64,000 bases of DNA from a virus. Its lineage: Duplodnaviria > Heunggongvirae > Uroviricota > Caudoviricetes. The position numbers and the translations under genes are program-made. Under the pieces are notes generated by a model that did not search any database, was not told where the DNA came from, and was given only the letters and a program-made list of their open reading frames with translations. Position 1 is the first letter of the stretch. Each line of letters begins with the position of its first letter. Location: the IMG/VR virus record IMGVR_UViG_3300042275_000481, positions 38,172 through 102,171 of that record. One strand, 5' to 3'. Below are positions 20,122 through 51,201 of this stretch, in pieces.

Positions 20122-20160
20122 TAAAAAAATAGCGGGAATAATCCCGCTATTTATCATAAT
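20122..20160 (-). terminator. intrinsic terminator (agcgggattattcccgct plus T-run)
   Basis: Hairpin followed by a TTTTTTT run on the minus strand, directly downstream of the 20163 ORF. Confidence 0.55.
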
Positions 20161-20162
20161 AT

Positions 20163-20720
20163 TTATTTTAGATACTCGTCTAACACTGTATTTAAACGGT
20201 CTAGCTTAGCAACCTCTAAAACAGGGTGCTCAATGTATCTTTCTGGATGTTTCGCAAAGCGAATAACTTCTTTCACATCTTTTTTCGGATATTGAGTCCA
20301 ATCAAAGACTTTTCTCCCTAGAAGTTTTCCAGAAATGGTGAGTTCTTCTAACCAGTCATAATATTGATCGCGGCCAATTCTATGTTTTTTAAGAACTTCA
20401 AATACTTTCGCATCTGTATTCTTAACTTCAAGAATGACCTTTGCAGCAGTTTTGAAATAAACTGTGCGGTTGGTTAAAATGAGATTTTGTTGTTGCCATA
20501 CATTTTGAGATTGTTTGTATTTTCCAGCTTTTGTGCCATCTTTGTAGCGTCTGGAAAATTTCTCATTTTGTACGTCTAGCTGGGAATAATTTTTCCAAGC
20601 TCTTTTTGCTTTTTGGCGGTCAACTTGAAGTTGGTCAGCCAAAGTGTTGATCATTTGATTCGTGATTTTCTTTTTCTTACTAGTCGCAAGAGTGAAAATC
20701 AAAGTTTCTAAAGCGTTCAT
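20163..20720 (-). CDS. hypothetical protein
   Basis: 185-aa ORF downstream of gap. Confidence 0.4.
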   Translation of the reverse strand: MNALETLIFTLATSKKKKITNQMINTLADQLQVDRQKAKRAWKNYSQLDVQNEKFSRRYKDGTKAGKYKQSQNVWQQQNLILTNRTVYFKTAAKVILEVKNTDAKVFEVLKKHRIGRDQYYDWLEELTISGKLLGRKVFDWTQYPKKDVKEVIRFAKHPERYIEHPVLEVAKLDRLNTVLDEYLK

Positions 20721-20748: not shown

Positions 20749-21765
20749 TTACTTAATACTCTTCTTAACTAAATATTCTGCAGTTCTAATAAGTTGTGCA
20801 GCATAACTCATTTCATTATCATACCAGGAAATGACCTTAACAAGCTGTTTCCCGTCTACTTCAATAAGTTGAGTTAATTGTCCGTCAACTAATGAACCGT
20901 AAGTCATACCGATTGTATCGCTTGAAACGATTGGGTCTTCTGTGTAACCAAGTGTTTCATTTGCAGCAGCTTTCATTGCGTCATTGATTTCTTGAACTGT
21001 AACATTTCTGCTAAGCTCAACTGTCAAGTCTACAACAGAACCTGTTGCTGTTGGTACACGTAAAGCAATACCATCCAATTTACCTTTTAGTTGAGGTAAT
21101 ACAAGTCCAACTGCTGATGCAGCGCCTGTAGATGTTGGAATAATATTTGATGCAGCTGTTCTGCCGCGTCTTGAATTTACACCTTTTGGATGTGGTCGAT
21201 CTAATGTCACTTGGTCATTTGTATAAGAGTGAACTGTTGTCACATAACCTTTAACAATACCAAATGAATCATCTAAAACTTTTGCAACTGGTGCTAAACA
21301 GTTTGTAGTACAAGATGCACCACTAATTACTGTTTCTGAACCATCAAGTGTTTCATGGTTTACACCAAATACGATCGTTTTTAAGTCACCTTTTGCTGGT
21401 GAATTGATAATAACTTTTTTGGCACCTGCTGTGATGTGCGCCATTGATTTTTCTTTTGACGCATAAAAGCCGGTACATTCTAAAACGACATCAACATTTA
21501 ATTCTCCCCAAGGAAGTTGTGATGCATCTTTTTCAGCATAGATTCTAATCTTTCTCCCGTCAACTACTAAGTAGTCTCCCTCAACGGAAATCTTATCCGA
21601 CATATAACGACCTTGTGTGGTGTCATATTTTAATAGGTGTGCTAATTCAGCAGGATTAGATAAATCGTTAATCGCTACCACTTCAAATGTTGGATTGTCA
21701 TGTACAAGTCTGTACGCTAATCTCCCGATACGACCGAAGCCGTTAATTGCAATTTTTGCAGCCAT
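20749..21765 (-). CDS. gap: type I glyceraldehyde-3-phosphate dehydrogenase
   Basis: N-terminal NGFGRIGR Rossmann motif. Active-site [10 protein letters not shown]. Full-length 338 aa with conserved WYDNE near the C-terminus. Confidence 0.9.
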
Positions 21766-21863
21766 AGTTTATTTCCTCCTTTTATATTTTATTTCACTTC
21801 TCGAACCAATATTATAATATATGTTTAAAGAGAAAGATAGACCATATTGGTCTATCTTTCATT

Positions 21864-22412
21864 TTATTCAGGAATTACTAATATACCATAATTTCCATCA
21901 TTACGTTTGTAAATAGTCGAAATTAAGGCATTATTATCTTTATCTTTGAAAATAAAGAATGAGTGTCCAAGAAGTTCCATTTCTTCAATTGCTTGTTCAC
22001 GAGTTATAGTTTCTAACGGAATAAACTTTTCCCTTGCAATCTTTCCTGTTTCTTCTTGTTCTTCATTATAAATTGCTTCTAATTCTTCTTGTAAATCAAG
22101 AATATTAAAAGCTAATTTATTTCCATTTCTATGCTTCATTCGCATAGTTTTATATTTTCTAATTTGTCCTTCTAATTGATTAACAACTTCAATAACAAGA
22201 GCATAAAAATCTGTACCAGAATGTGACGCTCGGATGTTGCCTGGAATTGCTATTTCTAATTTTAGTTGATGTCCTTCTTTCTTGAGCGTTGCTCTTCCAT
22301 CTACACTATCAACAAACCTCTTTAACTTTTCTACCTTCTCAATAACATAAGTTTTCATTGCATCGGTAAATTCAATTTTTTTCTTGTCTGAGTAGAATTC
22401 CATAATTTTCAT
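21864..22412 (-). CDS. hpf: ribosome hibernation promoting factor (long HPF/YfiA family)
   Basis: N-terminal RaiA/HPF fold region. C-terminal dimerisation domain ...EEMELLGHSFFIFKDKDNNALISTIYKRNDGNYGILVIPE is characteristic of long-form HPF of Firmicutes. Confidence 0.75.
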   Translation of the reverse strand: MKIMEFYSDKKKIEFTDAMKTYVIEKVEKLKRFVDSVDGRATLKKEGHQLKLEIAIPGNIRASHSGTDFYALVIEVVNQLEGQIRKYKTMRMKHRNGNKLAFNILDLQEELEAIYNEEQEETGKIAREKFIPLETITREQAIEEMELLGHSFFIFKDKDNNALISTIYKRNDGNYGILVIPE

Positions 22413-22518
22413 CCCTTCTTTTTTAATTATAATTTATTTCTTCTTCAGGTCATATTTATAATATATAAATAAAAGCATATTTACCCCCTTAAGTCTAGAG
22501 GTAAATATGCCTTATTTT

Positions 22519-22770
22519 TTATGCTAAGAACGCCTCTAGATCCTTTTTAGGTCTATAACCGACCATGGTTTGCATGTCATCTCCATCTAATTTAATTATA
22601 GTTGGGACTCCAGCAATTCCATACGACATAGCTTCTAATTGGCCTTCATCAGTGTCAATGTAATATTCTGTCATATCTAGGTTTTGTTCTTGTTTAATTT
22701 CTTCTAATATTGGTGTGATCATCTTGCAAGCGCCGCAATTTTGGGATTTGAATAATAATATTTTTGCCAT
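22519..22770 (-). CDS. thioredoxin/NrdH-like redoxin
   Basis: 83-aa thioredoxin-fold protein with a CGAC redox motif. cis-Pro region GVPTII. Next to the RNR gene. Confidence 0.65.
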   Translation of the reverse strand: MAKILLFKSQNCGACKMITPILEEIKQEQNLDMTEYYIDTDEGQLEAMSYGIAGVPTIIKLDGDDMQTMVGYRPKKDLEAFLA

Positions 22771-23555: not shown

Positions 23556-23870
23556 TCATTCTAAATTGTTCATATGGTTATTGAGTTTGTTTCCATCTTT
23601 ATGATTAACAAAAGATTTATTACTAGGATTATCAATAAACATTATAGCTACTAATCTATGGACCATGAATTGTCTTCTTTCCATATTTTTCTGTAAAGAT
23701 ACTCTATAGTATCCATTTTCAGATAATCCTAGTTTTTTCAATTGTCCCTTATATTTTTTGTTATTAATAACCCTATCTAATGATCTTATATTTCCTAGAT
23801 TTGATACTTGATAGTAACTCTCGTATCCAATTATATCTTTCCATATTTCTGTCATATTACCTACCTCCAA
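23556..23870 (-). CDS. HNH homing endonuclease (NUMOD4 + HNH_3 motifs), free-standing
   Basis: EIWKDIIGYESYYQVSNLGNIRSL (NUMOD4) and VHRLVAIMFIDNP...VNHKDGNKLNNHMNNLE (HNH). Confidence 0.65.
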   Translation of the reverse strand: MEVGNMTEIWKDIIGYESYYQVSNLGNIRSLDRVINNKKYKGQLKKLGLSENGYYRVSLQKNMERRQFMVHRLVAIMFIDNPSNKSFVNHKDGNKLNNHMNNLE

Positions 23871-23933: not shown

Positions 23934-24465
23934 CTACAATCTATCAGAAGCACAACTACCAGTAGCACAATCTGGATCTTCATCTGCTTCTTCTTTATAG
24001 TATTCATCAAGTTCTAAATATTTTGTTAGTAATTCGTGGGAAAGGTCATCTAATCCTTCAATAGCTTCTTCATATTCTTCTTTAGTAATAGTTTGATATG
24101 GAGCTTGTGCATATTGATGGTCAGTCAATGGTAAGAATGAAACCGCTGTGAAAGATTTCCAGTTTTCATATAACCATTCTGTTGCTGCTTCCCACTCATC
24201 ATTTTGAACAGATACTGTAATCGATGTATTTTGGTCAGTATAGTGTTCTTGGAATCTCTTATATCTGTCTAGTTGTTCAATAACTGAGACGTCAAATTTA
24301 GTTCTCTTTGCTTCTGATTTAACTGGGAAATATATTACAGCTGTTGTATCAGGTCTTGTAATATCATCTTCAATTCTCCAGTTAAGCTTACTAATCACTT
24401 TGAACATTGGGTTTGTTTTATCAATGCGAATAGTTCTATAATAATATGGACTGTGGCTCATATGT
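23934..24465 (-). CDS. nrdJ: class II (NrdJ-like) ribonucleotide reductase, exon 3 of 3 (C-terminal part)
   Basis: Continues the conserved ...SS-G-x-E-P...Y-x-RR region as (V)HMSHSPYYYRTIRI. C-terminal redox cysteine pair DCATGSCASDRL. Confidence 0.65.
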
Positions 24466-25938
24466 CGTTTTATTCTATCAAGGTCGTTAATCTTGATACG
24501 TTCTCTTATGAACTGCTTATATTTTCATATAAGACTAGACTATATCACGATCCTTCTAAGGATCCTTTCCATTTCGATTTAAGGGATTTTCACCCACCAC
24601 TTGGCCCTACTCCTGTTGACAAATTTATATTAGCGCTTGTCCTTGGGATAGTCGTTGCACATCTAATTTAATTTTAACTTTTCTTTTAAGGTTTCTTCTA
24701 TTTTTAATTTGATTTTTTTCTTAGAGAGACTAGATACATCAATCCTCAAGAGCTGCTCGCCTGCAAAGTTATTTCTAATATTATCCCTTTGTTTAATAAT
24801 TTCAAGTTCCTTTGCTAGACTATCTCTATTAAATGATTCTTTATGAAATCTTCCATCAATTTCTATAAATTTAATATCATCATGTTCTATTTTAAAATCA
24901 AATTCAAATTTATCATTACCTATTTGTTGATAGTAGTTTTGTTGAAATATTATGTTATTTTTTTCTAAAAATAAACGAGTTATTTTTTCTCCATAAGGTT
25001 CTCTTTCACAGGTACATTGTAAATTTTGGTTTATCATATTTACAGTAGTATACCATTCTCTTGGTTTATCATATTTACAATTAATATGTTTTACCTTTAT
25101 TTTAGAATGAGCATTTTTGTAGTTAGATGAATCTAATAATTCAAAACCTTTCTGTTCTAAGAGTTTTTTAACATCTTCAATAGATCTTGTCCTAGATTTA
25201 ACTCGTTTTTCCTGGCCACAAATAGGACACCCAAAGCCGCGAGTTAAATTATTTGGAGAAACTTTTCACTCATGACCACAAATATTATGTCTATGTAATA
25301 TCTTAGTATCTTTATTAATATATTCTTCTAAAGCAATATATTCATTATTATAAATATCATATAGATTCTTTTTATACTCTTGGTTCGTAAGCTTAAATGT
25401 ACCATTGCAAATAGGACATCCATGTTTACCAGATAAAATAGAATTAGGCGTTGTTTTTCACTCATGACCACAAATATTATGTCTAATAGTGATAGCTGTA
25501 CGAGTTCCTTTATATTCTTCTAATGCAGTATATTCATTCTCATAAATATGATGGAGTTTAAATCTAAAAGCTCTATCGTCAAGTATTCTTCCACTACAAA
25601 TAGGACATCGCTGATTTGATGATAAAAATTTTACCAGTGGCATTTTTCATGTGAAACCACAATCTAGATGCTTAAATTCCATCAGTGATTTATTATTAGT
25701 ATAATCTGATTCATTAGAAATTAAAATATATTTTCCATGCCCTTTTTCAAAAACCTCATTTTTTATATCAACAAATTGTTTTCGTTTCATACAATACACT
25801 CTCCCTCTTATTAAAGAATAATATATTGTTTAGTTAAAATTAAATTATTTTGCTCAGGATTACCATATCTTTTGACTTAGGCTTCCCTGAATTAAAAAAG
25901 TTTTCTTATACTATTGCTAGTATAAGGCGCAATATTTT
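24466..25938 (-). mobile_element. group I intron (RNR intron 2) carrying a heavily decayed homing endonuclease gene
   Basis: Proposed 5' splice site after U of ..gctggcgt. The 3' end ...aataaaacg (omega G) is homologous to the end of the ORF-less Clp intron. R (24645-24660) and S (24548-24556) elements present. The 5' portion (aattcagggaagcc...atcctgagc, 25850-25905) resembles the 5' portion of intron 3. Confidence 0.55.
24663..25790 (-). pseudogene. multiply frameshifted homing endonuclease (zinc-ribbon + Vsr/DUF559-like family)
   Basis: ATG at 25788-25790 with an AGGGAG RBS. Fragments are MKRKQFVDIKNEVFEKGHGKYILISNE..., then ...NQRCPICSGR... (25458-25643), then the nuclease-domain remnant IEIDGRFHKES...LLRIDV (24663-25037). 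All are in different frames. Confidence 0.5.
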
Positions 25939-26798
25939 ACGCCAGCGCTACTTGAATTAGCAACTAATCCAAGTGTTCCTGAAGGTTTAACAGCACTTAC
26001 ATTAAGTGAATGAGATAAACCAAGTTCATCAGCATACTCATCTGCAGACCTTCTAATTACTCCGTAAAGCCAATCCATAAATTTATTTTCTTCTTCAATA
26101 TTCATACCTGTTGCTTCAATCATATCCATCCATGAAGATGGTGAAACACCGAGTAATCTATCTTCTTCTTGTGTTTTGTCCCACTCTTCTAATTCAAGCG
26201 TGTTCATGGTGACACGATAAGCAGAACGAGTTAAAACACGAAGGTCTTTTTCAAGTAAATCATAGTTGATAGTTTTATCTTCATTTAGGTAAAATACAAC
26301 ATTGAATGTAACTAAGTTACATGTCTGTTTTGAGCGTAACAAAATCTCGGCACAAGGATTGAGTCCTCTAGCTTGAGGGTGTCTCTTCTTGATTTCACTT
26401 TCATTCATAAATCCTGGTTCACCGAATGACTTGATATTCTCCATCCAAGCAGTTACTTCTTCCTTAGTTGGTTCATATCCTTCTTCGACAACCATTGTAT
26501 TATTTGAAATCCAATAGTGAGAAATTTTTCTATCACTAAAATCCGTGAAGTTTGTTTTGGCTTTTGCCATTTCATCATCTGTTCTTGAGAATAGTGCAAT
26601 CATAGCACTTCTTCTTACACCACCAACAACAATCGCTTCAGCAATTGAGTTTGCAATGTGCATCATATGAATTGGTCTTAGTTTTCCATCAATTGGCGCT
26701 TTTGTAAGAATGTTTCCGTGACTATCTAAATAATCTCCAGTAACAACTTCATGCATCTTTTTGATAGATTGAATGAATGGTTCGGCACCACTTGCATA
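25939..26798 (-). CDS. nrdJ: class II (NrdJ-like) ribonucleotide reductase, exon 2 of 3
   Basis: Contains GGVRRSA, the active-site loop NPCAEI (N-x-C-x-E) and the KPSGTLGLVANSSSAG motif. The exon ends inside the Val codon ahead of intron 2. Confidence 0.7.
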
Positions 26799-27987
26799 CA
26801 TATGTTAGCTCATAGTTTCTTATGAGATCAGACTATATCTTCAACCCTAGAACTATCTAGGATTGCCTCGCACTTCGAACTATAAGTTCTACTCTACTCA
26901 CTTCTTTACTTAGATTATGTTCTAAGCTATGTTTTCGATAGTCGTTGCACGTTCAAATATATCATCTAGAATTTCATGTATCTGACTAATTTGATTATAT
27001 CTTATTCTTATTAAATTGATATTATTTTCTTTTGCTATTTCATTTTTTCTGAAGTCATTTTCTTTCAAAATTTTGAATGATTCTTCCCCACCCCAATTAT
27101 CTTGAGGTATAAAATGTTGTATTCCGTCAAACTCAACTATTAAATTTTTTTCTTTAATCCAAAAATCCAATCTTAAATTTCCAAATAATTTATGCGTTTT
27201 ATTATATTTATATTTAATATTTTTAGAATTCAAATAATCTATAATAATTCGTTCACCATTTGAAGCTTGACAAAATGGACATCTTTGACCTTGTTGAAAG
27301 TCATTAGGTCTCATAACAAAAGTATTTTTGCATTTTTTATGATAATGTTTTATTTTTGTATATGAATTAATATATTCCTCATTTACAGTATATTGATTAG
27401 AACCTAATTTCTTAACTAAATTTTTATACTGTTGATGTGTTTTTCTAATTCCGCCATTGCAAACCGGGCATCTTCTTCCAGCTGAGATGAATTTATTGGC
27501 TGTTGCATAGTAATCATTTCCACATTTTTTATGTGTAAATTTCAACTTACTGTGATTATTCTCATAATTACCTTCAACTATATACTCATCTTGTACTAGA
27601 TCATATATTTGTTTTTGTATATCTTCTAGTGTGAATGCATGAAATTTTTTTCTTTTTTCATTAGCACATAACGGACAACGTCTTCCTTGTTTGAATTTAT
27701 CAGGTGTTACTGAATAAATATTACCGCAAGCAAGATGTTCTACTTTTAATTTAGTTTTCGAAGTAGTATAAGTTTCTAACCATTTATACTCATTCGCATC
27801 ATCAAATTTTTTATTAATATCATTTAAGAATTTTTTATGTTTAGTCATTTTAATACAGTCCCTTCTATAATAATATATAAGCTTCGCTCAGGATTGTCTC
27901 CATCATTACATGGTAAGAGTTTCCCTGAATTCACGAGGTTGCTATAATATATTGTTATATTAAGGTGGCTATGCTTTTGGGGCGTTA
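26799..27987 (-). mobile_element. group I intron (RNR intron 1) carrying an intact homing endonuclease gene
   Basis: Exon 1 ends ...TFGG with U before the in-intron TAA. The intron ends in G just before tat-gca-agt (YASGAEP). R (26927-26940) and S (26830-26838) elements present. Confidence 0.6.
26922..27848 (-). CDS. intron-encoded homing endonuclease: four tandem zinc-ribbon (CxxC...CPxC) modules plus a C-terminal Vsr/DUF559-like PD-(D/E)xK nuclease domain
   Basis: Repeats of H..CGN.Y...P..F..G.RCP.C. C-terminal IVEFDGIQHF...D...K...INLIRIRY. The 3' end reads through the R element of the intron core. Confidence 0.6.
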   Translation of the reverse strand: MTKHKKFLNDINKKFDDANEYKWLETYTTSKTKLKVEHLACGNIYSVTPDKFKQGRRCPLCANEKRKKFHAFTLEDIQKQIYDLVQDEYIVEGNYENNHSKLKFTHKKCGNDYYATANKFISAGRRCPVCNGGIRKTHQQYKNLVKKLGSNQYTVNEEYINSYTKIKHYHKKCKNTFVMRPNDFQQGQRCPFCQASNGERIIIDYLNSKNIKYKYNKTHKLFGNLRLDFWIKEKNLIVEFDGIQHFIPQDNWGGEESFKILKENDFRKNEIAKENNINLIRIRYNQISQIHEILDDIFERATTIENIA

Positions 27988-28986
27988 ACCACCGAAGGTT
28001 TTGAGTGGCTCTCCAGCTGGTCGGATGTTATTAAACACCATTCTAATATTCTTATAATCATGGTCAATTTCATAACTCATGTATTTTAAGAATTCAGTTA
28101 CAGCTTTACCCCAACCATCTCTGCTGTCTCCAACAATAATTGAAATAGTTCCATCAAGTTTTAGAACCTGAGTTTTGTCTTTTCTCATTGTCTTTGGAAG
28201 TGGGTTGTAAGGCACAACTTGTAATTTTACATCGCTTCTAAATCTTGGAAGTTTTTCTGCAACATCCCAAGTAATTCTGTATCCAACTCCAGCACCAACA
28301 GATAATAGATATAAAATATCATAGAATGAGTCTAATGTGTCTGGTTCAATAAATGAGCAGTTGAATAAACTTAAAGGATAACGTTCTGCAGCACTTGATC
28401 CACCTGTGAACATTGCACGTCCACTAAGGAAAGCTCTAAGATTAAACTGCATGTCAAATAATTGCTCAGCTTCTCTTTTAAGAAACTGCATAACTTTTTC
28501 TTCACGTTCACGAGTATCCATATTGATATTATGGTCTGTGGCACGTAAAATTGTTTCTTTAAATGTTTCTCGTCTACCTAATTCAACTACATCTCGACTA
28601 TATGTTCTCAAATAAGTAAATTTACTTACAGGGCCCATATGTTTTGGGTAGCTGTCATAGTTCACAAGGAAACTCGGTGCTAAGTACTCAGAGCTATAAA
28701 CAACATCTTTCAACGATTCTCTTCGTTTCGCTCTTGCATTTCTTCTTAATATATAATGCTCAACAGCTTCAGGATATTCCCTGATTGCATGTTGCACTTT
28801 GTTTTGAATCTCTTCTATTCCAATACCATCATAAACAACTACAGATTTAGCCATCTCTTGAATCTTTGAGTATAGTTCCTCTGCTCTTTCTTCTCCATAA
28901 GTCTCTCTGAACGCTTTGTAGATTGCCTGTTCGATTTTGGAGACATCGAATTTTTGCAATTCACCAGTTCTTTTACGAATATACAT
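27988..28986 (-). CDS. nrdJ: class II (NrdJ-like) ribonucleotide reductase, exon 1 of 3 (ATP-cone N-terminus)
   Basis: N-terminal ATP-cone (RKRTGELQKFDVSKIEQAI). Exon ends ...KTFGG. Confidence 0.7.
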
Positions 28987-30772: not shown

Positions 30773-31369
30773 TTATTTATCAGATGGTTTCTTGATTTCG
30801 TCAATAATTCCATATTTTAATGCATCTTCTGCAAACATCCAACTGTCACGTTGTGTATCTTTTTTAAGTTGAGTAACTGTCTTGTTACATGATTTTGCAA
30901 TCATCTTAAGCAATTTCTCATTTAATTGTTTTGTAAAGTCAAGAGAAACTTCCATATCTTGGATATTTCCTTGAGTTCCACTAGATACTTGATGAAGCAT
31001 TACAGTTGCATTTGGTAGCGCAAAACGCTTGTCACCTTGAGACAGAATAGCTGCGCCCATAGATGCAGCAAGACCTTTAACACAAGTATAAACTGGTGCT
31101 TCAATATCTTTCATAACATCAATAATAGCCAATCCGTCAAGAACGGATCCTCCCGGACTGTTGATGTATAATTGAATAGGTTGTTTGCTAATTTTATTCA
31201 AATGTAACAATGTTTGTGTAATATAGCTAGCTTGTCTTTCATCAACAACACCTTCTAAATGGACAACACGGTCGTCAATTTGTGCACGTTGAATATCATA
31301 TTTAGGTTCTGAGTAATAAGTCCCTGAACTAGTCATAGGCTTATTAATATTTTTCGGATCAAAATTCAT
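30773..31369 (-). CDS. clpP: ClpP-family serine protease (S14; ClpP/NfeD-like)
   Basis: YINSPGGSV, Ser nucleophile in GLAASMGA, His in MLHQVSSG. 198 aa. Confidence 0.8.
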   Translation of the reverse strand: MNFDPKNINKPMTSSGTYYSEPKYDIQRAQIDDRVVHLEGVVDERQASYITQTLLHLNKISKQPIQLYINSPGGSVLDGLAIIDVMKDIEAPVYTCVKGLAASMGAAILSQGDKRFALPNATVMLHQVSSGTQGNIQDMEVSLDFTKQLNEKLLKMIAKSCNKTVTQLKKDTQRDSWMFAEDALKYGIIDEIKKPSDK

Positions 31370-31433: not shown

Positions 31434-32543
31434 TTATGGATTTATAATAATTCCGGATCCATCAGTAATAACTTGTGGCAACTCACCATTCCATGTATTT
31501 AAATACTCGATATATTGAATATAATCAAAGATTACCTTTAATTCTTCTGGAGTACTTCCTGAAGTATCAACTGTATATGTTGTAACCTCTGTAACTGGAT
31601 CTGTGGTCGATGTAACTGGCATACCTAATGTTCTGGCAACATCAACGACCTTAGCTGACAATGCAGCTGCTTCAGCCTGAGCGATTGCAAGAATAGCGTT
31701 TGCTTCACCTTTAGCTTCTTCTAGAGCCGATTCTGCTTCAAGAATAGTTGTTGCTAATTGTTGTTCAGCCTGAATGATGGCAATTTGTTTTTCAGTTTCA
31801 GCTTTTAATCTTTGTTGATCTGCAATCATCTTAGCTTCAACAGCTGCTTCAAAAGCATCTGAAAATGCAAAATCTGTAAGATAAATCGCAACAATTTCAA
31901 CAGGCATTCCTCTACCATTAATTTCCTCAACAATTAAGGTTTCTATAGAAACAGATAATGCGGATCTTTGTGAAATTAAATCCTCAGCGGTATATTGTGA
32001 TAAAGACGATTTAGTTCTTTCCATAACAAGCGAACCTAATCTATCTCTAACATTTTGAACATCTCCACCATATTTTTCATAGATTGTTTGAGCTTGTTCT
32101 CTCTTAATTCTCCACTGAACTGTAAGCATTGCGTCTACAGGCTGGGAATCGTTAGAATAGAATGATATTCCCATATCTTCAAGATTGTCATATCTGATTT
32201 CTTGAACTTTTAATGTATATTTGTGATATTTTTCTAATGGGCTTTTAACCTTTAAACCAGGTTCATATACAACTCCTTGAATATCTCCTAATTGAGTAAC
32301 AACCACTACTTCGGTTGCATCAATAGTTTGAAACATTCCAAATAATACAATTAATGCGCCAAGTGGAGCAAGTAACACAAGTTTACGGAATTTCCATCCG
32401 AACTTATATTGTTCTTCTGTATATTTTTCAACAGTTCCATCATATTTTACTTTTTGTTTCTCAACAATATATGAATGTTCTCCTAGGCCAAGACCAATGA
32501 ATAAACCAATAACTAAAATAAATGCAAAAATAATTAAAAACAT
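31434..32543 (-). CDS. SPFH/band-7 (stomatin/prohibitin/HflKC-like) membrane protein
   Basis: N-terminal TM helix. SPFH core domain. Long Ala/Glu/Gln coiled-coil (AEQQLATTILEAESALEEAKGEANAILAIAQAEAAAL). Confidence 0.75.
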   Translation of the reverse strand: MFLIIFAFILVIGLFIGLGLGEHSYIVEKQKVKYDGTVEKYTEEQYKFGWKFRKLVLLAPLGALIVLFGMFQTIDATEVVVVTQLGDIQGVVYEPGLKVKSPLEKYHKYTLKVQEIRYDNLEDMGISFYSNDSQPVDAMLTVQWRIKREQAQTIYEKYGGDVQNVRDRLGSLVMERTKSSLSQYTAEDLISQRSALSVSIETLIVEEINGRGMPVEIVAIYLTDFAFSDAFEAAVEAKMIADQQRLKAETEKQIAIIQAEQQLATTILEAESALEEAKGEANAILAIAQAEAAALSAKVVDVARTLGMPVTSTTDPVTEVTTYTVDTSGSTPEELKVIFDYIQYIEYLNTWNGELPQVITDGSGIIINP

Positions 32544-32612: not shown

Positions 32613-33216
32613 TTATACTGATACTACTTCTTTTTCTTTTTGCTTGGACTCGATACGATCAATAGCCACAAGCATTTGTTTTCTTACAGCGCGCTTCAAT
32701 CCACGTGCACCATAAGTTTCGATATCAGCTGTCTTAATGATATCATCGATATCAGATTTAATGAATTTAACATCTTTTTCCATTTCCATGTACTCTTGAT
32801 ATTCTTTCTTGTATCTGTCGATTAGTGTTTCAGCGATATCTTTTTCAAGACCGTTGAACACAATGATTTCATCTAAACGGTTGATGAATTCTGGACGGAA
32901 ATGCTTTTCAACATTTTCTCTAATTTCGCTTGACTCAGTTTTATGAGTTACGAATCCAGAACTTCTAGGTTTAGCAAAGTCTTTACCATAACCTAAGTTC
33001 GTTGTGAAAATAATAATCGCATTTCTAAATGAAACACGATTTTTATGGTTATCAGTCATTTCACCTGTATCTAAGATATTCAATAATGTATCGAATACTT
33101 TTGGATGAGCTTTTTCAATTTCATCAAATAGAACGACTGAGTTTGGATACTGTTTGATTTTTGCAACTAAACCTGATTCATCATCATGGCCTATATCTTT
33201 TGTGTTACGATAGTTC
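32613..33216 (-). CDS. ClpC/ClpA-like double-AAA+ ATPase, exon 3 of 3
   Basis: GHDDESGLVAKIKQYPNSVVLFDEIEKAHPKVFDTLLNILDTGEMTD (D2 Walker B/sensor), RPEFINRLDEIIVF (sensor 2), GARGLKRAV. The 5' boundary is uncertain (33191-33216). Confidence 0.65.
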
Positions 33217-33491
33217 GCTAAACTATCTCTTTATATTTCTATAAAGAACTGACTATATCTTCACCCGATAAACGGGGTACTGCATTTCGAGTTCGCTTGA
33301 ACCCTACTCCCATAAGGGATAGTCGATGAACCTTCATCTCATTGAGATGTTTGGCTGCGGATTGCCCAATCTCTTGCCTTTTTACCATCTCTCCGACGTT
33401 ACTCTTCGATTAACAGGTAGCTAAGAGCTCTAAGGGGTTTCCCGCAATTAACAGTATTTTCTTTTGTATATCACTATACAATGGGGCGTAT
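33217..33491 (-). mobile_element. ORF-less group I intron (Clp intron B)
   Basis: R (revcomp of gggatagtcgatgaacc, 33316-33332) and S (33251-33259) elements. Conserved gcggattgcccaatct and gctctaaggggtttcccgcaatta blocks. Proposed 5' splice site after U of tgg-att. The 3' splice site is ambiguous: ..tagcg or ..gatata. Confidence 0.5.
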
Positions 33492-33628
33492 AATCCACCC
33501 AGGGGCACTACCAGTAATTTTTGTTACATCCATTTCAGTACCATATTCACCCATATTTAATTTGATTAAGTTTCGTTCAGCACCACAGAATTGCTTTGCA
33601 ACAATTTTACAAGTTTCGGTTTTACCGA
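33492..33628 (-). CDS. ClpC/ClpA-like ATPase, exon 2 of 3 (46-aa micro-exon)
   Basis: Encodes VGKTETCKIVAKQFCGAERNLIKLNMGEYGTEMDVTKITGSAPGWI. This is the remainder of the D2 Walker A (GPTG|VGKTE) through the ...G-A-P-P-G-Y-like motif. Confidence 0.6.
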
Positions 33629-33938
33629 CCGTTTATATTCCATCGAAATCGTTAATTTCAATGCGTTCTCTTATGAACTGCTTATACTTTCATATAAGAC
33701 TAGACTATATCATCACCTTTTTCAGGTGGTTTACATTTCGACTCACTTGAGTCTACTCCTTACGGATAGTCGTTGAACTTTTCTCTTATTAAGAGACTTA
33801 GCTGCTGATTGCCCAATCTACACACTTTTCAAGCCTTGGCTTTTCCTCACGGATCGCAGTGGCAGTGTAGCTCTAAGGGGTTTCCAGCAATTAGTAAACT
33901 TTGCTTATGTAAATTTCTTTACATAGGGGCTAAATTTA
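33629..33938 (-). mobile_element. ORF-less group I intron (Clp intron A)
   Basis: Exon 1 ends GPTG (ggt, U) followed immediately by TAA. The intron ends ..ataaacg (G) before gtcggtaaaacc. R (33754-33768) and S (33693-33701) elements, plus the gctgctgattgcccaatct and gctctaaggggtttccagcaatt blocks. Confidence 0.65.
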
Positions 33939-35408
33939 ACCCGTAGGACCTGCAAATACCATTGATGTCAATGGTTTCTCTGGATCGACTAATCCTCTTT
34001 CAATGTATCTTAGGTTCTCAATAACACGGTTCAATGGTCTTTCTTGACCTAATAGAACACGTTTCAACTCTTTTGCAGTTGCTTCTGTTTTGTTGTCAGC
34101 AATATTGATATCATATTTGACTTTAATCGCTGTGCGAACATCATCTGTGAAAACAATTTCACCGTCTTCATTGAAAACAGTTGAACTGGCAAATGCAAGT
34201 TCCAACATATTAATTGCTTTTGCTGGATTTGCTTGGTCAAGGGTGTATTTTTCAGAATAGTCTAAGACTTTTCTTACTAAATCGTCCTCAGCCTTCTTAC
34301 CAAAATATTCTTCGATATCAGGTTGTACACCTTTAAGAATTTGATAAGTTTGTTGTTTTGTAGGCTCACTAATGTTTACCTTATGGAAACGTCTTTCTAA
34401 TGCTTTGTCTTTGCTGATGTGTTTTTGATATTCATCATCAGTTGTAGTCCAAATCATTTGAATTTCACCACGAGTGATATATGGTTTAAGAATATTACCA
34501 CCACTTGCAGCTCCTTCTGCGTCTCCTAATTTCACCATCATATGTGCTTCATCAATGAACAGAATTACTTCTGGATTTTCTTTGACAAGTTTAATGATGT
34601 TCATAAGTTTTTCTTCAAAATCACCACGATATCTAGTTCCAGCAACTAATGCACCTGGATCTAATTGGTATACAATTTTGTTTCTGAACTTTTTAATAAC
34701 ATTTTTATTATTAATACGATTTACGAATTCATATACTGCAACAGTCTTACCTGTACCAGCAGGTCCAACGAGAATCGCATTTCTAATTGATTTTCCTGAC
34801 AAAGCCATTTGAATTTGATTAACAGCATTGTCTGCACCGATTACAACTGGTTTCGCTTGTTTCACATATCTGTTAAGATTTGTTAACTCACGGATTTTTT
34901 CCAATGCATCGATTTCTTGTTTAGTTGCAACAATATTAAATGCTTCAACAATTTTCTCAGACATTTGGTCAACTTTTTGAGTTGAACCGCCGAGAACAAA
35001 TTCAAGAATACTTCTAAGTTTATAACTTGGGTCTGAAAATAACACTTTAATAAGGTCTTCAACTTGCATTTGTCTGCGTTGTGCAAGAGCATCTCTTTTA
35101 AGTTGATTTCTTACAGCATTACCTTCTTCATGCCAAGTAACTTCAAAACGTTCTCCGCCTACATCCAATCCAGGATATAGTTCCAAGAATACCTTTTCAA
35201 AATCTTCTCCCTTAACTTCGTATTCTTGTAAGATATTCGTTAGAGTTTCATACGTCTCAGCAAATCTTTCAGTATCTTTATTCTTCTTCAAGAAGATTGT
35301 TGTACCTAAGAATAGATGAGGTGTACCAACCCAATTTTGATAGTTCTTAATTGCAATTTGTCCCGCTTTTTGCGAAATCATTTCGACTTCTTGTGATAGT
35401 GCCTTCAT
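33939..35408 (-). CDS. ClpC/ClpA-like ATPase, exon 1 of 3 (Clp-N repeat, D1 AAA+, start of D2)
   Basis: D1 Walker A GPAGTGKT. Walker B ILFIDEAH. ALERRF. Ends at ...MVFAGPTG (first half of the D2 P-loop). Confidence 0.75.
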
Positions 35409-38851: not shown

Positions 38852-38948
38852 AATTTTGTTTCCTCCCTGTTATTTGTTTTGTCGAGTTATAATTTTCCAG
38901 TAACTCGCATTTATAATATATAGTTTAAAACTTATTTAAAAATACAAC

Positions 38949-40571: not shown

Positions 40572-40772
40572 TTTAGCTGGTGATATTTCATTTACTATTA
40601 TACATTTCTCTATATTATTGTATTGGCTCCAGAATCTAAATTCGCTTGAATTAATAATCTCATAGTTTTCACTATCAAAATATTCTCCAAATTTTATCTC
40701 TGGGTCGCCATAAATAGGAGTAGCTCCACTCCAATTTTTTGTAGTTTGTAGAATTTTTATTTTAATCTCCTC

Positions 40773-41555: not shown

Positions 41556-42113
41556 TTAAATATTATTATTCTCCATAAATTCCAATAATAAATCTTTGTT
41601 ATTTCTAATTTCTTTAAGATTATCATGTGTGATTTCAATTATATTGTAGTTTCCATGAAATATTTGTTTAACCTTTTTTAATACAATCTTGTTGTATTTT
41701 TCCTCATCATGATAATTTCTTTCTGCTCTTTCTACTTCTGGTTCAACATCTTTAATAAATAAGACATTGACTTTATCTGATTTATCTACTTTTGTTACAG
41801 CATCAAGAAATCCTTCAATTGATGCGACTATGATATTTGTTTTGTCCTCATCCAGTTTTGCCACTGGTGTTCCATAACGATATGGAGCGAATTCGTCCTT
41901 AACTTGCGCTATTAAAGCTCCGATATTATCGTAGTTATCATATTGCTCATCTGTTAAGAAATAATATTCTCTTCCTTCTTTTTCGTTATCTCTTGGAGGT
42001 CGTGTTGTAGTTTGGGTTAGCCAGTTATACTTCTCCGGTTCAAATAGTTCTAATTTCTTTGCCAGAGATGTTTTTCCACTACCTGATGGACCCATTATAA
42101 ATAAGTAATTCAT
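41556..42113 (-). CDS. guanylate kinase-like (d)NMP kinase
   Basis: P-loop MGPSGSGKTS. QTTTRPPRDNEKEGREYYFL matches the guanylate-kinase TTR-pR-gE-dG-dY-F signature. Confidence 0.65.
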   Translation of the reverse strand: MNYLFIMGPSGSGKTSLAKKLELFEPEKYNWLTQTTTRPPRDNEKEGREYYFLTDEQYDNYDNIGALIAQVKDEFAPYRYGTPVAKLDEDKTNIIVASIEGFLDAVTKVDKSDKVNVLFIKDVEPEVERAERNYHDEEKYNKIVLKKVKQIFHGNYNIIEITHDNLKEIRNNKDLLLEFMENNNI

Positions 42114-42469: not shown

Positions 42470-43348
42470 TTAATCCTCCTCTTTAAGAATATCCTTTGCT
42501 AAGATGTCACATATTTCATTAAAATTATTGTCATCGTGACCTCTTGTCCATTTAAACAGAATAACATGGTCTGTTTGTTTTGATAAATTGTAAATCTCTT
42601 GAATCAATTCTTTATTAGCTATATCTTTCTTTGCATAGTTTTTGAAGTTATTATTCTTCCAAGTATAATACCATTCCCTGAATACTTTAACGCCATATTC
42701 AGAATCTGATATAACAACTTGGTACTTCTTCTTTCCAAAGTTTTCTATAGCTACTTTAATACCAGTTAGTTCACCGATATTATTAGTTCCGTCTTGAACT
42801 TTTCCAGATAATCCTAAATAACTAAATTTCTTATCTGTGAATTCATCTAGAACGCCATTTGAATCTTCTTGCAGCAATTTCGCTACACCATAACTCGCTT
42901 CGTTAGTATCTTTTTTAAAGCTACCATCTGTATAAGTGACATCAATCTTTTCATCACTTATTTCGGCAAGTATAGATATTTCAAGGAATATCTTTTCTAA
43001 TACAATATGATTACCTTGATTAAAAATTGTAGCTAGTGAATATATGATATTATTTGTTACCTCAATCACACTATTAATTTTCTGAAATAATGTTTCTTGC
43101 AACAATATCATCTGCTCTGTAAGATTTACTGGTGCGTCTAATATTGGAACCAACACATAATTATAATTTAATTCTTTTGCCTTTCCTGGCAGCTGTGTTT
43201 TTATCTTTGATGTGTAAGCCAGTTCTTTCAAAACTTTCTGATCCAGAAAGTTCTCCATACTAGTGCTATCATTAACAAAGATGTTGCAAATTATATATTT
43301 CAATATATTTCTCCTCCTGTAAATAAATTTATATTGCTCACATCTCAT
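42470..43348 (-). CDS. protein with C-terminal RNase H1-like domain
   Basis: YTDGSFKKDTNEASYGV, SDSEYGVKV..W...WKNN, WTRGHDDNNFNEICDILAKD follow the RNase H1 DEDD pattern (TDGS ... DS.Y ... W.KGH.G...NE.AD.LA). Confidence 0.55.
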   Translation of the reverse strand: MRCEQYKFIYRRRNILKYIICNIFVNDSTSMENFLDQKVLKELAYTSKIKTQLPGKAKELNYNYVLVPILDAPVNLTEQMILLQETLFQKINSVIEVTNNIIYSLATIFNQGNHIVLEKIFLEISILAEISDEKIDVTYTDGSFKKDTNEASYGVAKLLQEDSNGVLDEFTDKKFSYLGLSGKVQDGTNNIGELTGIKVAIENFGKKKYQVVISDSEYGVKVFREWYYTWKNNNFKNYAKKDIANKELIQEIYNLSKQTDHVILFKWTRGHDDNNFNEICDILAKDILKEED

Positions 43349-43419
43349 AAATATAATATATAAATGAAAAAAATATTAAGAAAAGACAAACCAGATGGTT
43401 TGTCTTAAATATTAACTAA

Positions 43420-49140: not shown

Positions 49141-51063
49141 TTAATAGTATAAATAATCCATTAGACTTTCTTCATCTTTTTCATACGTTTTTAAGTTTAT
49201 GAATTGCTCAGGTAGTCTTTCAAATGCTAATGCTTTTGCGATTGGACCATTCAATACTGTATTCGATACTCTTAGTATCTCATAATTATTTAATCTCTTC
49301 TTAGAGAAATCTAATTTGTTTCCTGTCTCTTTGTCCACGATTAATACAGAACTAATCATTTCAGCATGAACTGACATAATATCTAGTCCATTTTCTAAGA
49401 TAAGATCATCAAAGTTATTTACTAATTCATCATAGTTTTTGACATCAAGATGCCCACTAGATTCAATAAGGTCAAGAATTTGTTGCAATGATTTTGTTAG
49501 TTCATTGTTTTTAGCCATGAACGTAAATACAGCTTCATTATCGTCAAAATCGCTTCCTTTAAGTTTTATAACTTTAGTACTTTCTTCTTCCCCATCAAAA
49601 TCATATTCTTCGTCAAACTCATCTTTAATATTATTCATATTATAATATAATTTGACTTCTGGTGTCTTGTATGTAAAGACTTTCTTTCCTTGATGAATGA
49701 TTTCAATCTTTTCTGTATATTCACCAATTTCATCTTCATCTTGGTCTTCGATAGGAACTTTGTAAACAAGTACATCCGTATCTGGGTCTTTGATGAAAAT
49801 AGAATTCATATTGATTGAGAAATAGTCTAAGAATGGTTTCTTATCGTTGTAATTCCAATCAATTTTTTCTGAATTTGTGGTCAATAAATGTTTTGCGGAA
49901 AGCAATTTCTGTGTAAGTGGATTTGTTAGAAGTAATACAGATAATAATCCAGTATTTAAATCCTCATTGATTTCAGATAATTCTGAACCATAACAAGTTC
50001 TACAAACATGTCCTTCAGCCGCACATGTAACTGGCGAGCGCAGACCAATAATTTTTCCAATCAAATCTTTATTCTTGTTGGAATCTACTGTTAACAATTC
50101 GGACTCTTTCTTTCCATCTTTGTCAATAATGTAGTAATGTCTTCCATGGATTTGATCTAATTTCTTCTGAGTTTCTATATTATATTTAATATAATGCTCA
50201 GTTCCGCAGTCAACATGACTATGGTCATGATAACGGTCAATTAATGCTAATGATAATTTTCTTGTAAGATAGCCAGATTTTCTTACTTGTCTAGCGTTTG
50301 TTATGAGCGCCTTTCTTGTACCTTTTGCATTAATGAAATAGTTTTGAATAGTCTTTAAACCATTTAGATAATTCTCATCAATAGCATGGGGTATAATACT
50401 GCCATCAATATCAGGTTTCAGACCAATGAACCCAATTGCTTGTGTAAGCTGTTTCTTGTTAATTCCTGTATCCGCAGTCATAAATGGATAAAGTTCTGTC
50501 TCTGGACGGTCTAAGAAGAATTTCTCTATCTCATGTCCAAGTTTACTAAACTCATCTTCAATATCATTAAACTGCATTCTATCTTCTAACTTGTAGTTGA
50601 ATATTGCTTCTGCTTCTGGATCTTCCACATATAAGCGAACAAAGTCATGGAATGATATACTATTTCCAGCAAGTACATTTAACTCACCAGATAAGTCTGA
50701 CATTTCATTAATTGTTTCAGCTATAGTTTTTCGAAGATTATCAAAGTCAACTACAGTCTTTCCTTTGGCGATTATACTATTAAAATATTCATTAAGATTG
50801 TCCGCTGTGACAGATGCGAATCCGAAGATAAAATCTTCAGTCAAGACGACATCTTTTTCAACAAACGGTTTCATAATAAGTAAATTAATCAGCACTCTAC
50901 CAAGTGTTGCGTCAATAATCTGAGCTCCAATTTGTATCTTTGCAGGATTCTTTCTGGCGCTATAATCTTGCAAAATCAAATTCTTCAGATCGTTCTTCGT
51001 GTACTCATATTCTTCGTATTTACTGAAGATATTCGTGAAATTAAATAGTCTTTCTGAGCTCAT
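49141..51063 (-). CDS. multisubunit RNA polymerase beta'-like subunit, C-terminal-half fragment
   Basis: GTRKALITNARQVRKSGYLTRKL matches rpoC ...G.RKGL.DTALKTA.SGYLTRRL. RSPVTCAAEGHVCRTCYG matches the beta' ...C....GVC..CYG region. Followed by an ...LLTNPLTQKLL... segment aligned to the trigger-loop region. Confidence 0.6.
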   Translation of the reverse strand: MSSERLFNFTNIFSKYEEYEYTKNDLKNLILQDYSARKNPAKIQIGAQIIDATLGRVLINLLIMKPFVEKDVVLTEDFIFGFASVTADNLNEYFNSIIAKGKTVVDFDNLRKTIAETINEMSDLSGELNVLAGNSISFHDFVRLYVEDPEAEAIFNYKLEDRMQFNDIEDEFSKLGHEIEKFFLDRPETELYPFMTADTGINKKQLTQAIGFIGLKPDIDGSIIPHAIDENYLNGLKTIQNYFINAKGTRKALITNARQVRKSGYLTRKLSLALIDRYHDHSHVDCGTEHYIKYNIETQKKLDQIHGRHYYIIDKDGKKESELLTVDSNKNKDLIGKIIGLRSPVTCAAEGHVCRTCYGSELSEINEDLNTGLLSVLLLTNPLTQKLLSAKHLLTTNSEKIDWNYNDKKPFLDYFSINMNSIFIKDPDTDVLVYKVPIEDQDEDEIGEYTEKIEIIHQGKKVFTYKTPEVKLYYNMNNIKDEFDEEYDFDGEEESTKVIKLKGSDFDDNEAVFTFMAKNNELTKSLQQILDLIESSGHLDVKNYDELVNNFDDLILENGLDIMSVHAEMISSVLIVDKETGNKLDFSKKRLNNYEILRVSNTVLNGPIAKALAFERLPEQFINLKTYEKDEESLMDYLYY

Positions 51064-51201
51064 ACATACCTCCTATGAAGCTTAAATTCTCATGGTGCTT
51101 CAAGTATATAATATATTTTTATATTAATTTTAAACGTTTAAATTTTTTTGACTATGATAAATAAGGACTAACTTTTGTTAGTCCTTTTAATTAAAATAAT
51201 A

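Follow-up and report, generated by a model that had tools for sequence, protein, structure and literature searches.

The window, that is, the whole stretch of 64,000 nucleotides that was analysed, carries on its minus strand (20749..21765) a GAPDH gene of 338 amino acids, which starts with ATG and was assigned to the type I, NAD-type enzymes by its ORF, its Pfam and TIGR01534 matches and its residues. The following profile matches were obtained for its product: Gp_dh_N (PF00044) at residues 4-103 with the profile covered end to end (E=3e-36), Gp_dh_C (PF02800) over profile positions 1-158 of 158 (E=4e-59), and the NCBIfam model TIGR01534 "type I GAPDH" with a score of 415.3 against a cut-off of 367.2. 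Scores for the sister families were all below their cut-offs (316 vs 539 for Epd, 324 vs 450 for the ArsJ-associated family, and 32 vs 185 for type II). The GAPDH motifs NGFGRIGR and SCTTNC occupy residues 8-15 and 151-156, respectively. The top solved structures, both bacterial GAPDHs, were aligned over the full length (6fzi, E=3e-141; S. aureus Gap1, 3k73, E=5e-136), and identity with solved GAPDHs is about 60%. Both Pfam domains, the TIGR01534 score above its cut-off, the end-to-end structure alignment and the intact residues bear out the original prediction of a full-length GAPDH of glycolytic type, and the phage protein is apparently a complete and catalytically competent type I GAPDH.

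In the alignment of phage and cellular GAPDHs, the following residues are invariant: G9-F-G11-R-I-G14, the GxGxxG of the Rossmann NAD(P)-binding domain; S151-C152-T153 and H179, whose aligned counterparts in 6fzi and 3k73 are catalytic; T182, R199/R200/R202 (RRxR) and R236 (RVP) of the anion (Ps/Pi) site; and D34 and W314-YDNE. Asp34 is kept in every phage-context sequence and presumably corresponds to the acidic residue that follows beta-strand 2 (Asp32 by the numbering of the G. stearothermophilus enzyme), a hallmark of NAD preference. In NADP-dependent or GapB-like GAPDHs, the Asp after beta-strand 2 is lost and changes in the S-loop compensate. S-loop residue 190, a possible binder of the 2'-phosphate, is R, G, R, S, K or G across the phage lineages. 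Because the phages keep Asp34 and have no consistently basic residue at position 190, GapB-like or NADP specificity was kept as a low-probability variant only.

Upstream of GAPDH on the minus strand lies the gene for a long-form ribosome hibernation-promoting factor (HPF, 21864..22412; Ribosomal_S30AE and Ribosom_S30AE_C in Pfam, and TIGR00741), which is preceded by an 83-aa thioredoxin (22519..22770, minus strand; Pfam Thioredoxin, E=1e-13). A 185-aa ORF (20163..20720, minus strand) that has its own Shine-Dalgarno (SD) sequence follows 28 nt downstream of GAPDH; this ORF has homologues in related phages and gave no match in Pfam, PHROG or NCBIfam. The thioredoxin gene belongs to a conserved block that follows the RNR gene and is syntenic in four related contigs (L011, L013, L114 and L115). 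The block around GAPDH further encodes a class II RNR and ClpP as well as a ClpB-like AAA+ protein, with the gene for an SPFH protein nearby. The gene had originally been described as standing outside a bacterial gap operon, between phage hypothetical genes and terminators. Neither cggR, pgk nor tpi flanks GAPDH, and strong hairpins are present between HPF and GAPDH and after the 185-aa ORF, as described; the term "hypothetical" suits the downstream ORF, which has no family, but not the upstream neighbour, which is the HPF gene.

Three hairpins on the minus strand delimit these genes. Terminator-like structures occur in the thioredoxin/HPF gap (22472..22513; 17-bp stem, -21.9 kcal/mol, z=-6.6) and in the HPF/GAPDH gap (21832..21860; 13-bp stem, -19.7 kcal/mol, z=-8.05), and the GAPDH/185-aa unit ends in an intrinsic-terminator-like hairpin (20127..20152; 11-bp stem followed by TTTTTTT, -16.7 kcal/mol, z=-5.67). 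Direct reading places an SD sequence, GGAGG, at 21775..21779 on the minus strand, 9 nt from the ATG of GAPDH, and AGGAGG is found upstream of GAPDH in L011, L013, L029, L028 and L032.

At 21807..21826 on the minus strand, the motif AAACATATATTAT-AATATT-G resembles an early (virion-RNAP) promoter of the AR9 type, and it matches the experimentally defined early promoter consensus of AR9, AAATATATATTAT-N6-G (PMC5312081), at 12 of 13 positions and at the G. Transcription would start at the G at 21807, giving a 5' UTR of 41 nt. The motif upstream of GAPDH is kept in L013 and L032, and a similar one upstream of HPF, ATTTATATATTAT-AAATAT-G (22451..22470, minus strand), is kept in L011, L013 and L029. 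The window has eight exact TATATTAT-N6-G sites, and all of them are intergenic, although intergenic DNA makes up only 13.7% of the sequence (p~1e-7); five of the eight lie on the coding strand, no more than 55 nt before the start of an ORF, including the starts of RNAP beta', HPF and GAPDH. We infer an early-promoter role for these sites by analogy with AR9, whose RNAP is only 33% identical. A scan for generic sigma-70 promoters gave 45 sites vs 41 expected from shuffles, and such promoters were dropped in favour of the AR9-type motif. Since L011 and L029 have one or two extra genes between HPF and GAPDH, and their GAPDH is without its own promoter motif, the transcription architecture varies among relatives.

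The 64-kb window has phage genes on either side of GAPDH, namely those for a virion protein, RNAP beta', a helicase, a divergent PolB, RNase H and homing endonucleases, together with group I introns, and PHROG and Pfam matches across the window are of phage type, in line with the original placement of GAPDH in a phage genome. The RNAP beta' subunit (49141-51063) matched phrog_3015 (E=2e-76) and Pfam RNA_pol_Rpb1_5, and its best tblastn matches were PBS1/AR9 at 33% identity, with Staphylococcus jumbo phages also close. Judged from this gene content, the contig belongs to a bacterial virus, probably a giant one, with a distant relationship to phage AR9 of Bacillus. The longest contig with the exact GAPDH is 127 kb, and a syntenic relative without GAPDH (L114, Ga0643544_0000030) is a contig of 301 kb. 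Megablast of the 16 kb around GAPDH against 50,697 phage records gave trivial short matches only, and the phage therefore has no cultured close relative among them. A tRNA scan of the window found none. A Mycoplasma-like code with TGA as Trp was considered and rejected: under code 11, the ORFs are unbroken and closely spaced, and that of GAPDH runs through without a stop. TGA stops are rare (2/64), and both Trp residues of GAPDH are encoded by TGG.

GAPDH occupies the same syntenic slot in at least four diverged relatives (L011, L013 and L017/L029-31), and the short contig L032 keeps the pair of GAPDH and the 185-aa gene. The homologue of the 185-aa gene stands 3' of GAPDH in L011, L013, L029 and L032 with 60-76% identity, and HPF stands upstream wherever that flank is covered in syntenic relatives, including those without GAPDH. 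L028, whose GAPDH falls into the same clade, has no other gene in common with the window and lacks both neighbours; it may be a different phage or a rearranged region. An empty site was found in L114, L115 and L116, in which HPF, the hairpin, AAATATATATTAT-N6-G and the 185-aa homologue occur without GAPDH; in L114 and L115, the homologue (28-34% identity) comes directly after the HPF-hairpin-promoter arrangement. Because these distant relatives have the same synteny without GAPDH, the point of entry is placed between HPF and the 185-aa gene, and the latter is, as this gene order indicates, the original first gene behind the GAPDH promoter.

A phylogeny against cellular GAPDHs, proposed together with the original prediction, was constructed from 124 sequences, including eight phage-context GAPDHs that represent six diverged lineages. 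The eight were monophyletic in 500/500 NJ bootstraps, and the sister group of the phage clade, near the outgroups, was weakly resolved. The closest cellular GAPDHs, about 75% identical, are of uncultured Bacilli type and lie in ordinary bacterial contexts; named relatives belong to Izemoplasmataceae, Acholeplasmataceae, Fusobacteriaceae and Xianfuyuplasma. The best named genome among the matches listed was an Izemoplasmatales MAG (67%), in a listing that lies below the relatives at 70% or more and served solely to label lineages. Within the phage clade, dN/dS is 0.06-0.21 with dS >1, and GAPDH has been under purifying selection over its whole length in related phages. The phylogeny shows a single origin, followed by vertical inheritance under this selection, and the one capture would have occurred in an ancestral phage from which a single sub-clade of the uncultivated AR9/PBS1-like jumbo phages descends. 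Going by GAPDH similarity only, the donor would belong to low-GC Bacilli of the Izemoplasmatales/Acholeplasmataceae type, and this lineage is probably also that of the host.

GAPDH is a universal and abundant host gene, and most GAPDH matches in "phage" databases resemble host DNA (unannotated fragments and contig-end genes), both of which would suit an explanation by host DNA mis-assembled onto a phage or by a very recent neutral pick-up. However, both GAPDH junctions are spanned, and repeat, in 10 further contigs from separate JGI/Logan sample or run accessions with 98.8-100% nucleotide identity, and diverged relatives keep the slot even where their GAPDHs are only 74-83% identical. The GC3 of the gene (0.224) equals the window mean (0.224 +/- 0.050), whereas that of the closest cellular gene is 0.388; its composition has thus been ameliorated to that of the phage. 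The unanimous bootstrap support, the dS >1 with dN/dS at most 0.21, and the promoter and SD sequence of phage type point in the same direction. A host chimera, named with the original prediction as what would overturn it, is contradicted by these data; the artefact or passenger explanation is effectively refuted, and GAPDH is a real virus-borne metabolic gene, not an assembly error.

The following substitutions are fixed in the phage clade at sites that are nearly invariant among 116 cellular relatives: F18Y, T36S, D37N, A38P, T40E, S121N, A122S, M175V and A180S. The loop in contact with the adenosine ribose of the cofactor reads D-L-T-D-A-x-T in cellular relatives, but has D-L-S-N-P-x-E as a fixed signature in all six phage lineages. 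Since several fixed substitutions fall in the NAD-binding region, kinetics or cofactor properties may differ from those of standard GapA. A specialised replacement enzyme, active but diverged and working when the host enzyme fails, might build on such changes through resistance of the catalytic Cys to oxidation, escape from phage Clp degradation or from host regulation, or a relaxed NAD/NADP preference that might feed the neighbouring thioredoxin/RNR system. The fixed signature in the cofactor-ribose loop, the likewise fixed S121N/A122S (ISAP motif), M175V and A180S, and the presence of thioredoxin, class II RNR, ClpP and a ClpB-like AAA+ protein in the same block as GAPDH would agree with it; nevertheless, the chief determinant against NADP, Asp34, is kept, residue 190 varies among the lineages, and T40E puts a negative charge into the same cofactor loop, and we regard such a replacement as unlikely. 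A little less probable again is that GAPDH is one arm of a conserved early "host-physiology" cassette, which may consist of RNR, thioredoxin, long-form HPF and GAPDH with ClpP, the ClpB-like AAA+ protein and SPFH nearby, and that LSNPxE/INSP confers altered cofactor or regulatory behaviour, e.g., partial use of NADP+. If this were true, a jumbo phage of wall-less/fermentative Izemoplasma/Acholeplasma-like bacteria would control energy supply and ribosome state directly, NADP+ use would feed thioredoxin/RNR in hosts without an oxidative pentose-phosphate pathway, and the phage would provide a heterotroph functional analogue of the NADPH-boosting AMG strategy of cyanophages.

GAPDH is also a well-known moonlighter in Firmicutes, and a non-glycolytic role might consist in RNA or DNA binding, in interaction with a host or phage partner (e.g., the 185-aa neighbour or ribosomes), or in a virion or surface component. 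The constant company of HPF 5' and the 185-aa ORF 3' in syntenic lineages, wherever the flank is covered, might be taken in its favour, but both genes exist in GAPDH-less relatives and are thus independent of GAPDH, and the L028 GAPDH stands without either. A role in binding only would not need invariant catalytic residues, whereas the catalytic and substrate-binding residues are all invariant and purifying selection covers the full length, and we consider moonlighting improbable.

The reading that we prefer, with a probability of roughly 0.7, is a phage-owned, catalytically competent, NAD+-type phosphorylating GAPDH (EC 1.2.1.12-like), captured once and expressed early, which would sustain glycolytic ATP and NADH during infection. 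Its enzymatic activity, early transcription, host and fitness benefit via glycolytic flux are predicted here from sequence. The capture would have placed GAPDH directly downstream of a pre-existing hairpin and early promoter, and by landing there the gene would have become the leading one of two cistrons that are transcribed together early. On infection, a virion-packaged multisubunit RNA polymerase would transcribe GAPDH from AAACATATATTAT-N6-G, and the strong GGAGG site would allow efficient translation. The extra GAPDH could then keep the oxidation of glyceraldehyde-3-P going during shutdown of host gene expression; this oxidation would feed both substrate-level ATP steps and yield NADH. 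In a fermentative host, glycolysis would be the main source of ATP, and a genome of about 300 kb would be costly to replicate. The boost of glycolysis and NADH supply that had originally been suggested as the purpose of the gene is plausible.

Most of the well-supported AMGs of phages are known from marine cyanophages and concern photosynthesis, the pentose-phosphate pathway or nutrient uptake. The present locus provides a cleanly documented core glycolytic enzyme fixed in a jumbo-phage clade, with filled and empty sites, one acquisition and strong selection, which appears to have been put under the control of the phage's early transcription. A GAPDH that is fixed, selected and apparently early-wired suggests that lower glycolysis can be a bottleneck of phage production where hosts are low in GC and probably fermentative. 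The locus offers a defined enzyme for experiments, for which relatives with and without GAPDH exist in nature, and it may serve as a quality benchmark, in which junction reproducibility, synteny, monophyly, amelioration and a phage promoter separate a real case from contamination.

Entries named "gapA" appear in AMG surveys of viromes (PMC12180181); these are pipeline annotations without context, phylogeny or empty-site evidence, whereas all three are available for the present locus. GAPDH genes are known in giant eukaryotic viruses, Nucleocytoviricota (PMC8407384), and at least 177 IMG/VR stretches encode GAPDH, including GVMAG contigs and marine phage-like contigs, in the latter of which the gene lies mid-contig beside a clamp loader, RNR or PRPP synthetase. 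The GAPDHs of giant viruses and of other IMG/VR stretches are independent acquisitions with only 41-57% identity to the phage GAPDH, and they come from contigs with no other gene in common with the window. A tblastn search of GAPDH against the 50,697 phage records gave 29 matches, none of them in AR9, PBS1 or Staphylococcus jumbo-phage records; most of them are unannotated fragments, bacterial contigs under phage names or host-species records, and these were attributed to host DNA and rejected as precedents. We found no mention of GAPDH or glycolysis in two jumbo-phage reviews, and a curated case of a jumbo-phage GAPDH appears to be undescribed.

Jumbo phages of the AR9/PBS1 group have two multisubunit RNAPs. 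The present phage resembles AR9/PBS1 in RNAP beta' (33%), the divergent PolB, genes rich in introns and homing endonucleases, and the early-promoter motif, but it is very distant, with no nucleotide-level match among the phage records searched. Its enzyme is like bacterial GapA (TIGR01534; 3k73, 6fzi) in length, two domains, Cys-His dyad, phosphate sites and GxGxxG/Asp; unlike bacterial GapA, it is virus-encoded, stands outside a cggR-gap-pgk-tpi operon behind a phage early-type promoter, and has clade-specific changes, including LSNPxE, at otherwise invariant sites. The AMGs of cyanophages (CP12, talC, zwf and gnd) are likewise host-derived, conserved and under purifying selection in lytic-type phage genomes, and both they and the phage GAPDH presumably re-tune host energy or reducing power during infection. 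The characterised cyanophage genes, however, push carbon to the pentose-phosphate pathway, with CP12 inhibiting the Calvin-cycle GAPDH, whereas here the phage supplies the glycolytic enzyme, and its carrier is a jumbo phage whose host is low in GC and probably lives by fermentation.

The gene at 20749-21765 (- strand, ATG start, 338 aa; ORF call, Pfam and NCBIfam) encodes a full-length GAPDH, exactly where the original prediction had placed one. The protein has the Pfam domains Gp_dh_N (E=3e-36) and Gp_dh_C (E=4e-59, matched over positions 1 to 158 of a 158-position profile) and the motifs NGFGRIGR (residues 8-15) and SCTTNC (residues 151-156). With the NCBIfam equivalog model of type I GAPDH (TIGR01534) it reaches 415 bits, the cut-off being 367, and it stays far under the cut-offs of the NCBIfam models for type II, ArsJ-associated and erythrose-4-P dehydrogenase proteins. 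The solved structures nearest to it, 6fzi (E=3e-141) and S. aureus Gap1 3k73 (E=5e-136), are both of bacterial enzymes and align end to end. No chemistry-defining residue is missing (G9xG11xxG14, Asp34, Ser151-Cys152-Thr153, His179, Thr182, Arg199/200/202, Arg236 and Trp314-Tyr-Asp-Asn-Glu), and the catalytic and cofactor residues show no variation across the aligned phage and cellular sequences. Every feature testable at the sequence level agrees with the protein being a type I GAPDH.

The window also encodes the beta' subunit of a multisubunit RNAP (49141-51063; phrog_3015, E=2e-76), whose best relatives are those of the Bacillus jumbo phages PBS1 and AR9 (33% identity), followed by Staphylococcus jumbo phages and Yersinia phage phiR1-37. 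Other clearly phage-type genes are those for a virion structural protein, a divergent DNA polymerase of family B, RNase H, a helicase and RusA, and there are many HNH-type homing endonucleases. No nucleotide-level relative was found among 50,697 phage records. The exact GAPDH protein occurs on at least 14 contigs. Ten of these, whose sample or run accessions (JGI and Logan) are separate, were retrieved and are 98.8-100% identical to the window in nucleotides; nearly all of them span both GAPDH junctions (two start about 80 nt 5' of the ATG). The GC3 of the gene is 0.224, against a window mean of 0.224 +/- 0.050 (58 ORFs) and 0.388 in the closest cellular homologue. A chimera with host DNA, the concern raised with the original prediction, is contradicted by the reproduction of the junctions in further contigs and by this GC3 match, and the explanation of GAPDH as an artefact or a neutral passenger is effectively excluded.

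Genes for ClpP (30773-31369), an SPFH/Band-7 protein (31434-32543) and a ClpB/ClpC-like double-AAA+ protein (32613-35408; all -) form a conserved block, which is shared with the GAPDH-bearing contigs L011 and L029, is present without the SPFH gene in the GAPDH-less relatives L114 and L115, and is possibly a phage-controlled proteolysis or membrane module. Other host-like accessory genes are those for a NADAR-domain protein (55638-56063, -; E=8e-27) and a guanylate kinase homologue (41556-42113, -). Three group I introns scored above the Rfam gathering threshold (33229-33506, 33681-33948 and 62238-62540, all -); two fall in the gap that splits the ClpB-like gene into 33936-35408 and 32613-33083, and the third adjoins a fragment of the divergent polymerase (61559-62218). 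The class II RNR, a single intact gene of 799 aa in L011, is in at least three pieces in the window (27985-28986, 25917-26801 and 23934-24461, -), with inserted ORFs of homing-endonuclease type (26922-27848 and 24663-25037) and no intron model above threshold in the region (23934-28986). Just 3' of the last piece lies a NUMOD4/HNH-type endonuclease ORF (23556-23870), one of two ending in TGA, which is open for 35 codons beyond that codon. Stop codons of ORFs of at least 100 aa are strongly skewed (TAA 47, TAG 15, TGA 2), and the conserved genes still fit the standard code.

No cggR, pgk or tpi gene was found near GAPDH, in agreement with the earlier view that the flanks of bacterial gap operons are missing. 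The conserved upstream genes are the interrupted class II RNR (23934-28986, -), Trx (22519-22770) and, immediately adjacent, a long-form HPF with S30AE and C-terminal dimerisation domains (21864-22412, -). Downstream, an ORF of 185 aa (20163-20720) starts 28 nt past the GAPDH stop codon and has no family match in Pfam, PHROG or NCBIfam. Strong hairpins lie in the Trx/HPF gap (22472-22513; -21.9 kcal/mol, z=-6.6), in the HPF/GAPDH gap (21832-21860; -19.7 kcal/mol, z=-8.1) and, followed by a T-run, 3' of the 185-aa ORF (20127-20152; -16.7 kcal/mol, z=-5.7). The description of the flanks as phage hypothetical genes and terminators therefore holds for the 185-aa ORF and the hairpins, but not for the upstream gene, since this is HPF.

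Early promoters of AR9, with the consensus AAATATATATTAT-N6-G(+1), are read by the RNAP that is packaged in the virion (PMC5312081). A corresponding motif, AAACATATATTAT-AATATT-G, was found 42 nt 5' of the GAPDH ATG, which is also preceded at 9 nt by a canonical Shine-Dalgarno sequence, GGAGG; HPF has ATTTATATATTAT-AAATAT-G upstream. All eight exact copies of TATATTAT-N6-G in the window are intergenic, the intergenic share being 13.7% (binomial p ~1e-7). Six of the eight are on the coding strand, and five of these six lie within 55 nt 5' of an ORF start (RNAP beta', ATPase, RNase H, HPF and GAPDH). Besides those of HPF and GAPDH, the copies are at 1869-1883, 38906-38920, 43346-43360 and 51101-51115 (-) and at 1039-1053 and 40611-40625 (+); those starting at 38906, 43346 and 51101 precede the genes for the ATPase, RNase H and RNAP beta', respectively, and a hairpin precedes several copies. 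The motif is kept 5' of GAPDH in the GAPDH-bearing contigs L013 and L032 and 5' of HPF in L011, L013 and L029; L011 and L029 have extra small genes between HPF and GAPDH, and their GAPDH is without a motif of its own. A generic sigma-70 promoter scan was uninformative. We infer that GAPDH is probably transcribed early, by the polymerase that the phage itself encodes. The motif copies could help to delimit the early regulon in this uncultivated phage.

GAPDHs of 74-83% identity occur in syntenic phage contexts in L011 (36 kb), L013, L017/L029-L031 (44-64 kb, one in IMG/VR) and L032 (2.2 kb, limited to GAPDH and downstream ORFs), the shared order being ClpB-like, SPFH, ClpP, RNR, Trx, HPF, GAPDH, 185-aa ORF and DHH phosphoesterase. 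A same-clade GAPDH (74%) is also found at 1729-2742 of the 4.6-kb contig L028 amid small phage-like ORFs, including a DUF5662 protein, which have nothing in common with the window; phage-to-phage transfer or a very divergent relative could account for it. In a neighbour-joining tree of 124 GAPDHs (120 best database hits and outgroups), the eight phage-context sequences formed one clade in 500/500 bootstraps. The next-closest sequences, about 75% identical, are in ordinary bacterial neighbourhoods (Opp transporter, TrpRS, NAD kinase, iPGM and enolase genes), and the relatives that bear a name are from Izemoplasmataceae, Acholeplasmataceae, Fusobacteriaceae and Xianfuyuplasma; in the matches listed for 80 named genomes, the best match of nearly every phage GAPDH comes from an Izemoplasmatales MAG. 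Between members of the phage clade, pairwise dN/dS ranges from 0.06 to 0.21, and synonymous sites are close to saturation. More distant phages of the same group, L114 (301 kb) and L115/L116, keep the synteny without GAPDH, in the order HPF, hairpin, AAATATATATTAT-N6-G motif and 185-aa ORF homologue. The two arrangements are an empty-site/filled-site pair, pointing to a single GAPDH insertion directly 3' of a pre-existing promoter in the ancestor of one sub-clade. As far as sequence analysis allows, phage context, cellular origin and selection support the proposal that this GAPDH is an AMG.

HPF sits behind its own early-type promoter. Since it is kept in all relatives (L011, L013, L029, L114 and L115), GAPDH-less ones included, and shares no more than 43% identity with the listed cellular HPFs, its acquisition looks older than that of GAPDH. 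Reported phage HPFs are short forms of 105-111 aa from proteobacterial phages (PMC6375957). GAPDH-less L115 and L116 encode a bL31 ribosomal protein homologue (PF01197; 9325-9552 in both) between RNR and Trx, adjoining HPF, and both bL31 and HPF bear on the 100S/70S state of the ribosome.

The most economical reading is that the gene would be transcribed early and translated efficiently, and that its product would be an active NAD-type GAPDH. This enzyme would add capacity at, or safeguard, the glycolytic step that makes NADH and supplies both ATP-forming reactions of the lower pathway, at a time when host expression is collapsing and up to ~300 kb of phage genome must be copied. Glycolysis would be the main ATP source of the host, as is usual in Izemoplasma/Acholeplasma-like fermenters, if the host is one of these. 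Three rivals were ranked by falling likelihood, with a specialised replacement enzyme, possibly re-tuned by clade-fixed changes, before non-catalytic moonlighting and the artefact or passenger explanation. Positions nearly invariant in 116 cellular relatives are indeed changed in the phage clade, where the cofactor loop is DLSNPxE instead of DLTDAxT, ISAP has become INSP or INAP, and M175V and A180S are fixed or nearly so; however, Asp34 is kept and the relevant S-loop position varies among phage GAPDHs, and a switch to NADP is therefore not supported. Against moonlighting stand the conservation of the whole active site and the presence of the 185-aa gene and HPF in GAPDH-less phages as well. 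We consider it improbable that a functionally re-tuned GAPDH is part of an early cassette for taking over both energy supply and ribosome state.

The gapA gene is included in pipeline-derived virome AMG lists (PMC12180181), and giant eukaryotic viruses encode GAPDH (PMC8407384). Two jumbo-phage reviews make no mention of GAPDH, glycolysis or hibernation factors, and no bona fide isolate phage was recognised among the GAPDH matches in the phage record collection. In IMG/VR, our profile scan gave at least 177 stretches that encode a GAPDH, some of them giant-virus MAGs and many with the gene at contig ends, which are likely host flanks; the giant-virus genes and the marine homologues described next are independent acquisitions. 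Four marine contigs of 43-172 kb carry a homologue of about 320 aa (41-43% identity) mid-contig among tightly packed phage-like ORFs (L173 5992-6957, L187 5995-6957, L160 6001-6966 and L158 5995-6957), with a T4-type clamp loader, RNR large subunit and PRPP synthetase as neighbours in L173, L187 and L160, respectively, and seem to represent a separate phage lineage that has its own GAPDH-family gene. Because of these virome, giant-virus and IMG/VR precedents, we class the window GAPDH within a known kind, as a well-behaved and unusually well-documentable AMG rather than a new kind of system.
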